This document shows positions 1 through 40,757 of a DNA stretch of 64,000 nucleotides, one piece after another. Source of the stretch: Kiritimatiellia bacterium. GTDB taxonomy: Bacteria > Verrucomicrobiota > Kiritimatiellia > RFP12 > UBA1067. How positions within the stretch are numbered: the first letter of the stretch is position 1; each line of letters starts with the position of its first letter. The DNA is taken from NCBI GenBank assembly GCA_045536845.1, contig JAZSOG010000036.1, positions 6,899-70,898 on the forward strand. Reading direction: 5' to 3'. The notes beneath the pieces are model-generated. The model saw only the letters and a list, made by a program, of their open reading frames with translations. It searched no databases and had not been told where the DNA came from. A program made the position numbers and the translations under genes.

Positions 1-465
1 GGGGCGAAGATTCCGCTTCTCGCCAAGGACTTCATCTCGGAGAAGGCGCGTCTCCGCGAAGTGAAGGACGCGGGTGCGAGCGCGGCGCTTCTCATCGTCA
101 GATACCTTGACGACGCGCAGCTTGCTGGGCTTCTCGCTGAAACGCGCAGCCTCGGGCTTGACGCGCTTGTCGAGACGCACAGCGAGGAGGAGATAAAGAG
201 GGCGGTCGCAGTCGGCGCTGACATCATCGGCGTCAACTGCCGCGACCTTTCCAACTTCACGGTGGACGTGTCGATATCGGAGCGGCTCTTGAAGGCGATT
301 CCGGACGGAATCGTCAAGGTCGCAGAGAGCGGCATCAAGACGAACGTCGACATCGCACGGCTTCGTGCCGCTGGCGCGAACGCGTTCCTGATCGGCACCA
401 CACTTATGAAGTCACAAGATCCAGAAGGGGCGTTGCGGAGCCTTCTTGAGTTGCCAACCCTGTAG
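1..465 (+). CDS. trpC: Indole-3-glycerol phosphate synthase, C-terminal part (5' end outside window)
   Basis: Frame 1 is open from nt 1 ([12 protein letters not shown]...), and listed ORF 61..465 is the same frame. TrpC-like motifs are [21 protein letters not shown] and FLIG. It sits directly upstream of trpB-trpA-trpF. Confidence 0.85.
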
Positions 466-470
466 GATAT

Positions 471-502
471 CAACCTTTCAACCTTTCAACCTTTCAACTT
501 TT
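471..502 (+). repeat. 4 x 8-nt tandem repeat CAACCTTT/CAACTTTT abutting the trpB ATG
   Basis: Read directly: caaccttt caaccttt caaccttt caactttt ATG. No Shine-Dalgarno sequence lies between the repeat and the start codon. Confidence 0.9.
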
Positions 503-1684
503 ATGAACACGACGAAACATTATGGACCATACGGTGGACAGTACGTCGCCGAAACGCTGATGGGGCCGCTTAACGAACTTGCTGCGGCCTATCTCGAAGC
601 GAAGGAGGACCCCGAGTTCCAGCGCGAATTCGCGGCTCTTCTCAAGGACTATGTCGGGCGCGAGTCGCCGATTACCGTCTGCAGGCGGTTGTCAGCGAAG
701 CTCGGCGGCGCGACGATAGCCCTGAAGCGCGAGGACCTCAACCACACCGGCGCCCACAAGGTCAACAATACGATCGGCCAGGCGCTTTTAGCTAAGCGAA
801 TGGGCAAGAAGCGTCTCATCGCCGAGACGGGCGCGGGGATGCACGGCGTCGCTACGGCGACGGTCGCCGCGCTTCTCGGAATGCCCTGCGAGGTCTATAT
901 GGGCGCGATAGACGTGAAGCGCCAGGCGCCGAATGTCGAGCGCATGAAGATGCTCGGCGCGACAGTCCACGCAATTGAGGAGGGCAGCGCGACATTGAAG
1001 GACGCGATGAACGAAGCTCTCCGCGACTGGGTCACGAACTGCGACGACACTTTCTACGTAATCGGAACGGCAGCCGGTCCCTGTCCGTATCCGGAGATGG
1101 TGAAGGACTTCCAGTCCGTAATCGGACGCGAGGCGCGCCGCCAGTGCCTTGAGAAGTTCGGGCGTCTCCCCGACCAGGCGATCGCGTGCGTCGGCGGAGG
1201 GTCCAATGCCATCGGGCTCTTCGCCGGGTTCTTGGACGACGCGGGCGTAAAGCTCGTCGGCGTCGAGGCGGCTGGCAGGGGAATCGCGACGGGCGAGCAC
1301 GCGGCGTCGATAAACGGCGGGCAGCTCGGCGTCCTGCACGGCGCGAAGACGATGCTGCTACAGACAGCCGATGGCAACGTAATTGACACGTATTCCGTCT
1401 CGGCGGGTCTTGACTACCCGGGCGTCGGTCCGGAGCACTGCTATCTCCACGACACGGGGCGCGCCGAATACTCGTCGATCACCGACGACGAGGCGATAGC
1501 CGCGTTCGACGACTTGTGCCGCTGCGAGGGCATCATCCCCGCGCTCGAGTCGAGCCACGCGCTCGCGGAGGCCATCAAGCGCGCTCCGTCGCTTCCCAAG
1601 GATACGATCCTTCTCGTGTGCCTTTCGGGGCGCGGCGACAAGGATCTCGAAAATATACTCGCATATAAAAGGTTGAAAAGTTGA
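503..1684 (+). CDS. trpB: Tryptophan synthase beta chain
   Basis: ORF 446..1684 trimmed to ATG 503, because [15 protein letters not shown] is a canonical TrpB N-terminus. It has the PLP-lysine motif HTGAHKVNN and GGGSNAIG. Confidence 0.95.
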
Positions 1685-3035: not shown

Positions 3036-3052
3036 CGCGCGGATTTTAGCAT

Positions 3053-3262
3053 GGAGAACAGGAGATACAGGAGTTTTTGGAGGCGCCTTCGGCGCGGGGT
3101 CTGGGGTGCAACCCCAGTCTTCCTCCTGCCTCTCCTGTCCTACCTGCTAAAAACAAACATGCAAATCTAAAAACCTCCTTCCTCTCCTGCTTCTCCTGTA
3201 CTCCATGCTAAAAACAAACTGCTAAAAACAAACTTGTAAATCCTCCTAAAAAACAAAACTCT
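3053..3262 (+). repeat. Composite spacer: GGAG-rich arm, two GC hairpins, then a G-poor CTCC/CCTCC-rich tract with TGCTAAAAACAAAC repeats
   Basis: The purine arm is ggagaacaggagatacaggagtttttggagg (3053-3083). The hairpins are GCGCC-ttc-GGCGC (3083-3095) and CTGGGGT-gca-ACCCCAG (3101-3117). The tract 3118-3262 has almost no G on the + strand, carries at least 5 CCTCC/CTCCT copies and has TGCTAAAAACAAAC at 3145, 3206 and 3220. Confidence 0.8.
3083..3117 (+). terminator. Possible trp-operon terminator (tandem GC hairpins, no clean U-run; the C-rich G-poor tract that follows could be a Rho-utilisation site)
   Basis: Two perfect short hairpins lie immediately after the trpF stop. The downstream ~140 nt are C-rich and G-poor. 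Confidence 0.4.
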
Positions 3263-21836: not shown

Positions 21837-21845
21837 ATTATACCA
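21837..21845 (-). promoter_or_regulatory. Extended -10 TGGTATAAT for nadA, overlapping the rluD stop codon; 9 nt from the nadA ATG
   Basis: The plus strand reads attatacca at 21837-21845. The nadA start codon ends at 21827. Confidence 0.65.
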
Positions 21846-22740
21846 AAATTGCCTTCACATATGGCTTCATGTCATCGGGGATTGGCGCCTCGAAGGAAAG
21901 CTTTTCGCTCTTGGTCGGATGCCACAGCGTAAGTTTCCACGCGTGGAGCATCTGCCTCGTGGGCGGCGGTTCGAGGCGCTTGTCGAGAGCGGATTTCCCG
22001 TAGGTTCGATCTCCGACGACAGGACAGCCAAGAGAGGCCATGTGAACGCGAATCTGGTGCGTGCGCCCCGTTTCGATCCGACAGACGACTGTTGAAGTGT
22101 TTGCAGTCTTGCTTCCAGACGACGATGTGACCTGCCAGTTTGTTATGGCGACCTTGCCGTTCTTCTCGACGATTGCCATTCGCTTGCGGTCTACAGGGTG
22201 TCGCCCGATGAGGCTCTCGATTCTGCCTGCGTCGAGACGCGGGCGGCCATGGACTATTGCAAGATATGTCTTCTCGATGTTTGCGTGCGACGCGAACGCC
22301 TTGGTGAGTCCTTCCATCGCCTTTTGCGACTTCGCCACAACTATGAGCCCCGAAGTGTCCTGGTCGAGCCGGTGGACGATTCCAGGGCGCGCAACGCCGC
22401 CGATTCCGGCGAGAGCAGGGCAGTGGTGGAGAAGGGCATTTACGAGCGTTCCGGAGAAATGCCCTGGCGCAGGATGAACGACCATTCCTGGCGCTTTGTT
22501 GATGACGATCATGTCGTCGTCTTCGAAAACGACGTCGAGTGGAATGTCCTCTGGCTCGGGGATGGCAGGAACCGGCGGAGGAATTTCTACTTCGATCTCG
22601 TCGGAATCGGAGACTTTCATTCCCGCCTTGTTTGCGATTGCGCCGTTTACCGTTACATGCCCGGATTTGACAAGACCCTCTATTCGCGACCGAGAGAAGT
22701 CGGGAAAGAGTTCAAGTATTTTTTTGTCGAGGCGCTGCAT
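21838..22740 (-). CDS. rluD: 23S rRNA pseudouridine synthase, RluA/RluD family
   Basis: It has an S4-like N-terminus and the catalytic motif HRLDQDTSGL. TGRTHQIRVH is also present. Confidence 0.9.
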   Translation of the reverse strand: MQRLDKKILELFPDFSRSRIEGLVKSGHVTVNGAIANKAGMKVSDSDEIEVEIPPPVPAIPEPEDIPLDVVFEDDDMIVINKAPGMVVHPAPGHFSGTLVNALLHHCPALAGIGGVARPGIVHRLDQDTSGLIVVAKSQKAMEGLTKAFASHANIEKTYLAIVHGRPRLDAGRIESLIGRHPVDRKRMAIVEKNGKVAITNWQVTSSSGSKTANTSTVVCRIETGRTHQIRVHMASLGCPVVGDRTYGKSALDKRLEPPPTRQMLHAWKLTLWHPTKSEKLSFEAPIPDDMKPYVKAILV

Positions 22741-22747
22741 GGACGAT

Positions 22748-22756
22748 AGTATATCA
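22748..22756 (-). promoter_or_regulatory. Extended -10 TGATATACT for rluD, 7 nt from the ATG
   Basis: The plus strand reads agtatatca. The rluD start codon ends at 22740. Confidence 0.55.
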
Positions 22757-22765
22757 TATTAGAAG

Positions 22766-23177
22766 GGCGGTGGCCGAAGGCTCATGGAACCTCGGCGAAT
22801 ACGCCGTATCCATTCGCTCGGACCTTCGCTCCACCGCCAACTTCGCCGCGCCGCCCGATGAATAAAGGGAGAAGGAACTCCGAGCGTTAGGGCTCCCGCT
22901 ACCGCTCCGCAGCTTCACGATGTCCCAACGGCAATTCAGTGCGTCGAATTGTCTTCTTGAGCTGCCTTCGGCAGGGTTGGAAGACATAACAACCAATCCC
23001 TGCGCGCCAGAGGAGGTCTGGAGGAGACCTCCTCCAGCTCAAAGCCGACATGCGTTGCTCAGCGAGACGCGAATGAAGGGTGCGACGCAAATGTAATTCT
23101 GCGGAGCGGTAGCGAGAGCCCTGCTGATCGGAGTTAAATTCGGCGGCGCGGCGAAGGCGAAGGCCACGGCGGCGGGC
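22766..23177. other. Large structured palindromic element (candidate ncRNA or MITE-like element) in the rluD/aroKB divergent spacer
   Basis: A 5' hairpin pairs GGCGGTGG (22766-73) with CCACCGCC (22831-38). Long arms 22841-22912 and 23099-23156 are reverse complements with one 13-nt bulge. Internal hairpins are GTCTTC..CTGCC-ttc-GGCAG..GAAGAC (22951-85) and GAGGAGGTCT-ggagg-AGACCTCCTC (23010-34). Confidence 0.6.
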
Positions 23178-23183
23178 AGAATA

Positions 23184-23192
23184 TGGTATAAT
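23184..23192 (+). promoter_or_regulatory. Extended -10 TGGTATAAT, 8 nt before the aroK/aroB ATG (leaderless-type)
   Basis: Read directly: ataTGGTATAATttcaactcATG. Confidence 0.7.
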
Positions 23193-23200
23193 TTCAACTC

Positions 23201-24705
<1,505 letters not shown>

Positions 24706-24706
<1 letters not shown>

Positions 24707-40463: not shown

Positions 40464-40465
40464 AT

Positions 40466-40550
40466 CCGCCAAACGGGGTGCTGCGGCGCATGGTGCGCGG
40501 CGGCTGAGATGAGACCCGCAGAACCTGATCCGGGTAATGCCGGCGGAGGA
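40466..40550 (+). promoter_or_regulatory. TPP (THI-box) riboswitch upstream of thiS-thiF
   Basis: Conserved core reads GGGGUGC ... GGCUGAGA ... ACCC ... GAACCUGAUCCGGGUAAUGCCGGCG. P1 pairs CCGCC with GGCGG, next to the GGAGGAAG ribosome-binding site. Confidence 0.9.
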
Positions 40551-40556
40551 AGAAAA

Positions 40557-40757
40557 ATGAAGATCAAGTACCAAGGCGAAGTCGTCGATACGACGGCGAA
40601 AAATGTTGCCGAGTTTCTCTCGGCCCAGGGCGTAGACCCAGCGAAGGCGATTGTCGAATACGGCGGCGAAGTGTATGCGCCAGGCGCGGACCTTGCGTCG
40701 CTTGCGCTAAAGGCAGAAGCGCCTCTCGACGTGTTTAAGCTGACGGCGGGAGGCTGA
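40557..40757 (+). CDS. thiS: Sulfur carrier protein ThiS
   Basis: ORF 40509 trimmed to ATG 40557. It is 66 aa with a ubiquitin-like pattern ending in GG and lies downstream of the TPP riboswitch. Confidence 0.8.
   Translation: MKIKYQGEVVDTTAKNVAEFLSAQGVDPAKAIVEYGGEVYAPGADLASLALKAEAPLDVFKLTAGG

Follow-up and report, generated by a model that had tools for sequence, protein, structure and literature searches.

Bacterial miniature inverted-repeat transposable elements (MITEs), among them the Correia/NEMIS elements of Neisseria and Nezha of cyanobacteria, are short, non-coding sequences whose complete copies carry terminal inverted repeats and target duplications. Rickettsia palindromic elements (RPE) and REP and ERIC repeats are imperfect palindromes that occur in many contexts, and insertion in frame within protein-coding genes is the hallmark of RPE, while association with a RAYT/TnpA(REP) transposase is a feature of REP elements only. 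The intervening sequences (IVS) of 23S rRNA combine ends that form a long stem with a variable interior. Here, a stretch of 64,000 nucleotides from a Kiritimatiellia bacterium (contig JAZSOG010000036.1; hereafter the window) was analyzed with respect to the 460-nt spacer (22741-23200) between the divergent genes rluD and aroKB, and to the palindromic sequence at 22766-23177 within it. Probably, this spacer contains the fossils of two selfish repeats, situated between two self-sufficient host promoters: a palindromic repeat, and a truncated MITE relic whose core is the shell of a GxxExxY gene cassette lacking its open reading frame (ORF). For the host, both are most likely neutral.

Composition of the rluD/aroKB spacer

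An earlier sequence-only reading had treated 22766-23177 as a single structured element, either a non-coding RNA or a non-autonomous element with terminal inverted repeats of 60-70 bp. Comparison with related loci (denoted by L numbers) separated it into two unrelated repeats lying side by side, with the following features.

22766-22839: hairpin 1, a 74-nt copy, with a 6-nt deletion relative to its relatives, of an imperfect palindromic repeat of ~80 bp
22841-22855: left half of the outer stem, CTTCGCCGCGCCGCC, which repeats the 15-nt unit at the end of hairpin 1; outside the canonical MITE
22854-22871, plus strand: remnant of the left MITE flank, CCCGATGAATAAAGGG (22854-22869), followed by a deletion of ~47 nt (alignment with ten full copies)
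22872-23147, plus strand: homologue of the Family-1 MITE (MITE positions 104-379 of 427), 94.9% identical to L182 (blastn, alignment)
22876-22912, plus strand: arm A of the core, AACTCCGA-GCGTT-AGGGCTCCCGCTACCGCTCCGCAG, the same arm being present in at least 120 metagenome contigs
22991-23019: ORF-site junction, at which longer relatives hold the GxxExxY gene; 8 nt (23000-23007) stand here in place of ~520 nt of L110 (blastn)
23099-23135, plus strand: arm B of the core, CTGCGGAGCGGTAGCGAGAGCCC-TGCTG-ATCGGAGTT
23136-23177, plus strand: degenerate right MITE flank, AAATTCGGCGGC...GGCGG, in which the right outer-stem half (23142-23156) lies, and which merges into the aroKB promoter

A scan of metagenome contigs with the arm query GGGCTCNCGCTACCGCTCCGCAG identified at least 120 contigs with names typical of rumen or gut assemblies. 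Many of the matches were at contig ends, and several contigs held two or more elements. The median G+C content of the arm-bearing contigs listed was 0.60, the same as that of the window, and some element-bearing contigs share window genes (72-89% nucleotide identity) with the element located elsewhere. No further copy was found within the 64-kb window (blastn).

Ten full copies, each in a different context, define a 427-bp unit (Family 1; 425-430 bp). All ten have the ends CTGGAGTTTACCCATTTTT ... AAAAATGGGTAAACTCCAG, with terminal inverted repeats of 19 bp, and are flanked by target duplications that are perfect (8-10 bp) in 4/10 copies and have one mismatch in two more. Contigs from both DNA and RNA sequencing runs break exactly at the MITE ends, with differing flanks. 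Given the terminal repeats and target duplications of the complete copies, the full-length members are mobile and have presumably been moved by a transposase acting in trans.

The window copy is a member of this family that lacks both termini. The first ~40 nt of the MITE, including the left terminal repeat, and the right terminal repeat AAAAATGGGTAAACTCCAG are absent from it (alignment), and a search of the entire window that allowed up to 3 mismatches gave no match to the Family-1 terminal repeat. No target duplication was apparent in the window copy when compared with the empty allele of L023. The insert of ~337 nt contains no conserved ORF and no transposase gene. With both ends and 47 internal bases lost, this copy is probably no longer mobile, and the segment ~22854-23177 is probably the relic of a 427-bp MITE and not an intact one. 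The earlier proposal of a non-autonomous element therefore holds for the interior, which copies a repeated, mobile, non-coding family that is present, absent or replaced among near-identical strains. It fails for the 60-70-bp arms as terminal repeats, since these arms are internal and the true Family-1 terminal repeats lie ~105 and ~60 nt outside them.

Hairpin 1 belongs to a repeat family of its own, unrelated to the neighboring large element. In the DNA runs holding this strain, the word depth at 22788-22840 was 160-340, compared to 6-9 on either side, and many short contigs lead from hairpin 1 into differing flanks (at least six flanks per run). Separate copies are present in L013 (5630-5710, downstream of aroA), L150 (411-488) and L023. 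The L150 copy lies inside the uninterrupted 456-aa ORF of glutamyl-tRNA synthetase (gltX; 14-1384, minus strand), to which it adds, in frame, ~27 codons (RSAASEGSSSGALGEYAVSLRSDLRSAA) at a point that corresponds to a 14-residue gap in a solved GluRS; this was the sole in-gene case seen. Between copies, double changes preserve the stems (ATGGA/TCCAT is replaced by GGGGA/TCCCC and, in the outer stem, a T-A pair by C-G). Hairpin 1 is therefore probably a copy of a small palindromic insertion repeat scattered through the genomes of the rumen Kiritimatiellae lineage.

It could be argued instead that 22766-23177 is one composite palindromic unit, with hairpin 1 and the tail as its outer arms, that arose in place by inverted duplication. 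The 246-nt allele of this spacer (L007, L009), described below, is one long hairpin that combines the 5' arm of hairpin 1 with a 3' arm like the window tail, and the segment 22841-22855, which canonical MITEs lack, corresponds as reverse complement to part of the right MITE flank. However, hairpin 1 stands alone at the other loci (L013, L150 and L023), the core occurs without it in ~120 loci listed (667 kb), only two of which contain hairpin 1, and the window tail is not complementary to the 5' arm of hairpin 1. We regard a composite origin as very unlikely. With a count of 2/120, the idea that hairpin 1 regularly accompanies the large element was rejected as well. In L155 (3100-3184; same locus, cow-rumen contig), the 17-nt unit CTTCGCTCCACCGCCAA at the end of hairpin 1 is present as a tandem duplication, which shows turnover of the slippage type where the two repeats meet.

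The spacer is also polymorphic. The 18 public contigs that encode an identical RluD protein have spacers of 465, 394 or 246 nt. The 465-nt spacer is of the window type, with an insert 98.7% identical to the window's element. The 394-nt spacer shares hairpin 1 and has a similar tail and a different interior, and the 246-nt spacer contains a third sequence that folds into a single long hairpin. Of two related species, L017 has a window-type spacer and L023 a spacer of 131 nt, composed only of both promoter blocks and hairpin 1, which brings the number of spacer alleles known at this locus to four (131, 246, 394 and 465 nt). Since the spacer varies among contigs with identical RluD, the large element is dispensable and its turnover is faster than one amino-acid change in the neighboring gene. 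Such turnover is not expected of a conserved RNA gene or of a host regulatory device.

Two of the alternative inserts recur elsewhere: the 394-nt-type insert (L001/L003/L004) is 78% identical over 113 nt to L136 (7538-7649), and the 246-nt-type insert (L007/L009) is 86-90% identical to L084 (1323-1405), where it adjoins a truncated MITE. The rluD/aroKB spacer is a hotspot for several GC-rich CTTCGC/GCGAAG palindromic repeats, and its alleles may have arisen by recombination and deletion among them.

The shared core and the GxxExxY genes

The core of ~260 nt, bounded by the AACTCCGA...GGGCTCnCGCTACCGCTCCGCAG arms, forms the interior of the Family-1 MITE and holds the long stem and the apical hairpins. 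It was also found in a second MITE family with different ends and in ORF-bearing versions of 650-900 nt. Family 2 (a 288-bp family; copies of 287-289 bp) has the same arms, a different interior of 155 nt and terminal repeats GGYTCWTCGRAGWWTTTAGTGGAA that start with GGYTC, and its duplications are perfect, AT-rich and 8 bp long in 7/12 copies. Other arm-bearing copies have further flank types, each in several contexts, and nested and recombined elements were also observed (L185, L187, L197, L109). In the arms of L123, L148, L200/L201, L162, L174, L190, L161 and L187, extra GC-rich hairpins of 31-79 nt and of several unrelated sequences are all inserted at one position, between GGGCTCTCGC and CCGCTCCGCAG. 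This position is either the site-specific target of another mini-repeat or a tolerated expansion point.

In the long versions (arm spacing 594-739 nt), the arms enclose an ORF of ~130 aa with its own TGATATACT box, the promoter of the ORF lying inside the arms. The product is a GxxExxY protein (TIGR04256, E 2e-34; PF13366, PDDEXK_3, of the PD-(D/E)XK type, E 9e-32), and the same ORF was found between the same arms in the independent contigs L200, L202, L204 and L205. One ORF-bearing element is located between the enolase gene and smc, and another inside a type III secretion operon (human-gut contig). In L203, a gene for an IS110-family transposase (830-1921; DEDD_Tnp_IS110 and Transposase_20) is situated between the ORF and the distal arm.

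In the alignment with L110, the core of the window matches the sequence to either side of the ORF site, and in the intermediates L180 and L089 the ORF promoter is kept and the ORF is gone. A tblastn search of the window with the GxxExxY protein gave nothing better than E 0.5. The window copy, in which the arms and the two flanks of the ORF site are retained and the ORF is not, is thus linked to the GxxExxY cassette as a derivative and not as a member. The alignment to both sides, together with the promoter-only intermediates, indicates that the core is the shell of a cassette after loss of its gene, and this non-coding chassis would then be carried as the interior of the MITE.

The GxxExxY profile was found to match 14,050 representative clusters (50% identity) at E ≤ 0.001. 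Near relatives are mostly on contigs of ~1 kb, as repeats are. Flanking inverted repeats were present around all eight of the distant GxxExxY genes (L206, L207, L209, L210, L211, L213, L214, L215), for which relatives from Chloroflexota, Acidobacteriota and Binataceae are named (L207 is a Binataceae gene). These repeats are 28-44 nt long and 81-97% complementary, with an arm-to-arm gap of 362-422 nt, and each arm comprises about three tandem (C/T)NCAGATT units (arrays CGCAGATT). Several distant cassettes occupy operon spacers of a few bases, e.g., between the genes for thiolase and 3-hydroxyacyl-CoA dehydrogenase (L210-L212). Similar tandem units (CACAGAG, CACAGGATT) were seen outside the arms of the rumen copies L121, L124, L159 and L199.

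No relative of the GxxExxY protein was found in the PDB by sequence. Its AlphaFold model (pLDDT 88.5) gave only weak Foldseek matches to proteins of the PD-(D/E)XK fold (tRNA-splicing endonuclease, lambda exonuclease, Cas4), all with E ≥ 0.018, and therefore no activity is named for it here. The literature searched contained only passing mentions of the family and one table entry, 'Unknown', and nothing on MITEs in Kiritimatiellae. The small GxxExxY nuclease-gene cassette thus appears to be undescribed so far.

A broader proposal, toward which we lean slightly less than away from it, is that the genes for GxxExxY (PF13366) proteins form compact selfish cassettes of a class not described before. 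These would be bracketed by inverted repeats (28-44-nt arrays in the distant phyla, 37-nt AACTCCGA...CCGCTCCGCAG arms in rumen Kiritimatiellae) that serve as paired recognition sites of the nuclease or as its cruciform substrate. They would enter tiny spacers even within operons and would be reduced by gene loss to palindromic shells that spread as MITE cargo, the window element being one such shell.

A second long inverted repeat is present in the window at 3044-3213 (30-nt arms at 3044-3073 and 3184-3213, 90% complementary), and among the inverted repeats of the 64 kb it is the only one that shares the class of the spacer element. It contains ACAGGAGAT-like tandem units with GC-rich hairpins between them (GGCGCCTTCGGCGC, CTGGGGTGCAACCCCAG), followed by CTAAAAACAAAC repeats, and no ORF. 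It resembles the outer flanks of the rumen copies L199 and L121, and no copy of it was found among the related loci examined. Its make-up suggests that it may be another gene-less cassette shell.

Folding, transcription and the host promoters

In hairpin 1, GGCGGTGG (22766-22773) pairs with CCACCGCC (22831-22838). The large element is closed by a perfect 15-bp outer stem (22841-22855/23142-23156) and a 37-nt inner stem that is 86% complementary (22876-22912/23099-23135), with bulges of 20 nt on the left and 6 nt on the right between them. Apical hairpins are found at 22961-22975 (GCTGCCTTCGGCAGG) and 23010-23034 (GAGGAGGTCT/AGACCTCCTC). The sequence-only reading had placed all of these stems correctly, hairpin 1 (22766-22838), long arms and apical hairpins alike. 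The plus strand of the 460-nt spacer folds with -223.2 kcal/mol (shuffled sequences, -167.8 +/- 6.8; z -8.1) and the minus strand with -221 kcal/mol (z -8.3); both values are well outside the range of chance, and their equality is what palindromic DNA would lead one to expect.

The same reading had seen no convincing ORF or terminator and no match to a known RNA, and both observations were borne out. The short ORFs of the region are not conserved in related copies; a 58-aa ORF at 22920-23096 was rejected as coding, its ATG being absent in several copies (L085, L153) and L128 being frameshifted. Inside the element, a single weak terminator match with a poor T tail was found, and no promoter or convincing terminator motifs beyond chance. 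Rfam gave nothing on 22600-23350 even at E ≤ 10, and ARAGORN detected no tRNA or tmRNA in the region. Three further candidates were discarded: a tRNA-like hairpin 1, whose GGCGGTGG...CCACCGCCA resembles an acceptor stem, has no T arm and no ARAGORN or Rfam match; the reading frames behind the idea that element ends donate gene starts (ATGGGTAAACTCCAG, ATGAACC) are short and unrelated; and for a phage origin, scans of viral contigs gave 0 matches to the hairpin-1 core and to the arm.

Alternatively, the ~260-nt core (22876-23135) might function as a structured RNA, either for the element or for the host, with the MITEs and cassettes as mere carriers. It would be transcribed from the AT-rich box TGAATAAAG (22859-22867) just upstream and would have a long closing stem and a multi-branched tip. 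The strong fold (z about -8) is in line with this, as is conservation of the core across two MITE families and the ORF-bearing versions with differing flanks. The 31-79-nt hairpins at one arm position in at least eight independent copies are reminiscent of an expansion site in a structured RNA, a subtype like L107 folds 10-20 kcal/mol better on the plus than on the minus strand, and many one-sided changes retain G-U pairs on the plus strand. However, among the pairs predicted on both strands G-U and A-C occur 5 vs 5, which gives no strand signal, and double compensatory changes affect only 2/75 predicted pairs; the copies of the 260-nt class are too alike.

Core-bearing contigs were also present in four metatranscriptome runs, in which the core had a depth 3-60x that of flanking genes. 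DNA runs showed a comparable excess, as the repeat is multi-copy in the community, and the RNA depth profiles mirror the DNA ones, so that copy number or DNA carry-over suffices to explain them. The assembled metatranscriptome contigs carry no strand information, and they continue into the MITE flanks instead of ending at the core or stem. Furthermore, the ORF promoter lies inside the arms, and the ORF mRNA thus cannot contain both of them. The element is missing or replaced in close relatives. For Rfam 15 (including 6S, RNase P, tmRNA, SRP, riboswitches, ROOL, GOLLD and HEARO), 20 related loci were searched without a match, and canonical copies gave nothing of relevance at E ≤ 1. Taken together, these data make an RNA-level function of the shared core improbable. 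The suggestion of a conserved non-coding RNA gene in the spacer is not supported: the large element is absent in a close relative and replaced in conspecifics, almost no compensatory change is seen and RNA depth tracks DNA copy number. The palindromic arms more plausibly act at the level of DNA than as RNA; they may be paired sites at which the nuclease binds or cuts, or may form a cruciform that serves the nuclease or recombination.

The host side of the locus comprises the following features.

21838-22740, minus strand: rluD-like pseudouridine synthase gene, the left neighbor (300-aa ORF; Pfam S4 and PseudoU_synth_2 on an identical protein)
22748-22756, minus strand: extended -10 box of rluD, TGATATACT, 7 nt before the ATG; it belongs to the host gene and not to the repeats
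23184-23192, plus strand: extended -10 box of aroKB, TGGTATAAT, 8 nt before the ATG; host promoter
23201-24706, plus strand: aroK-aroB fusion gene, the right neighbor (Pfam SKI and DHQ_synthase; ATG at 23201)

The distances of 7-8 nt agree with the sequence-only reading, which had placed both boxes within 10 nt of the ATGs. The two promoter blocks are an inverted repeat of each other and are unchanged in every spacer allele, including the 131-nt 'empty' allele of L023. The element sits exactly between these back-to-back promoters, which have almost no leaders, and this position, together with the inverted repetition of the blocks themselves, would suit a host cis-regulatory device for rluD and aroKB, such as an insulator, a supercoiling barrier, a bidirectional terminator or a binding platform. 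However, the same blocks and identical RluD proteins occur alongside four different spacers, one of which (131 nt) lacks the large element. In addition, the sequence copies a repeat of many unrelated loci and contains no promoter or convincing terminator motifs beyond chance. A regulatory role in the host is therefore very unlikely.

In this lineage, it is common for genes to have an extended -10 box (TGGTATAAT or TGATATACT) only 7-9 nt ahead of the start codon and to lack a Shine-Dalgarno sequence. This arrangement implies mRNAs with no leader or almost none; the 'FWYN' seen in the translated flanks of many loci is the -10 box TGGTATAAT. The window stems from a rumen genome of the Kiritimatiellae type: RUG and RGIG metagenome-assembled genomes (MAGs) labeled Kiritimatiellae, Lentisphaerae or Verrucomicrobia encode AroK-AroB proteins that share 75-90% identity with that of the window. 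In two related MAGs (L011, 2062-2964; L015, 1060-1962), rluD is upstream of aroKB in the same orientation and not divergent, which indicates that the locus was inverted or rearranged in those lineages. The sole Rfam match in the window was a thiamine pyrophosphate riboswitch (RF00059) at 40464-40565 (plus strand), with 55.4 bits against a gathering score of 54.3.

Significance and relation to known systems

Several observations weigh against the interpretation of the spacer as two selfish-repeat fossils. Terminal repeats and a target duplication are both absent from the window copy. It is classed as a transposed MITE by its homology to complete copies and not by ends of its own, and recombination could have brought it to this site. 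In ~0.7 Mb of related loci, no two terminal repeats were paired at a distance above 500 bp and none enclosed a transposase gene; an autonomous partner with the same ends was not found there. The occurrence of the core inside two MITE families with unrelated ends, its tolerance of extra hairpins at one fixed arm position and its presence in metatranscriptome assemblies would likewise be compatible with a module under selection for its own function, perhaps at the RNA level. Finally, that the window copy has no host function and is neutral filler is most likely, but this is a default and not a result.

The large element, as a relic of little import for this genome, should be annotated as repeat DNA and not as a gene or an RNA. 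The case also calls for caution, in that intergenic sequence that folds strongly should not be called non-coding RNA without population data. The greater interest is at the level of the family, where one palindromic module is common to two MITE families with unrelated ends and is tied to the very large GxxExxY family. The inverted repeats around every GxxExxY gene examined suggest a testable idea, namely that the nuclease serves its own small mobile cassette, and gene-less shells of such cassettes may be the source of some palindromic repeats in bacterial intergenic regions.

The closest known counterparts of the large element are the bacterial MITEs. Correia/NEMIS and Nezha likewise have many intergenic, promoter-proximal copies, vary by presence or absence among strains and fold strongly if transcribed, and the complete Family-1 copies resemble them in length, lack of coding capacity, terminal inverted repeats and target duplications. 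The differences are that the window copy lacks both terminal repeats, that no cognate transposase gene was found in the related loci, and that the interior is a conserved 260-nt palindromic module and not simply a deleted insertion sequence. Family 2 is reminiscent of the ISL3 family of insertion sequences in the start of its terminal repeats (GGCTCTT/GGYTC) and its 8-bp duplications in AT-rich DNA, a resemblance that we take as a lead only. No ISL3 transposase was seen with it, and the window copy is of Family 1, for whose terminal repeat CTGGAGTTTACCC no insertion-sequence family could be assigned.

Hairpin 1 is like RPE and REP/ERIC repeats in being an imperfect palindrome of ~80 bp that is present in many contexts and whose stems are preserved by compensated changes between copies; as in RPE, one copy is carried in frame by a housekeeping gene, gltX, with the ORF unbroken. 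It has no sequence similarity to those families and is not in Rfam, and no RAYT-type transposase was seen, although no search aimed at one was made.

The GxxExxY cassettes and their shells recall two further groups. Like the IVS of 23S rRNA genes that contain small ORFs, they have ends that form a long stem, a variable interior with or without a small ORF of a multi-copy family, and a sporadic distribution among strains. Unlike the IVS, the window copy lies between protein genes, rRNA is absent from 20/20 loci tested, the ORF has its own promoter inside the arms, and there is no evidence of excision by RNase III. With HEARO/IscB, the omega-RNA of IS200/IS605, ROOL and GOLLD they share a large structured non-coding sequence that is linked, in gut or rumen bacteria, to mobile DNA and to the gene for a small nuclease. 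They differ from this group in that no covariance model matches them and the nuclease is a PD-(D/E)XK protein of ~130 aa and not IscB or TnpB. Moreover, nothing points to guiding by an RNA, and the structure of the GxxExxY cassettes brackets the gene instead of following it.

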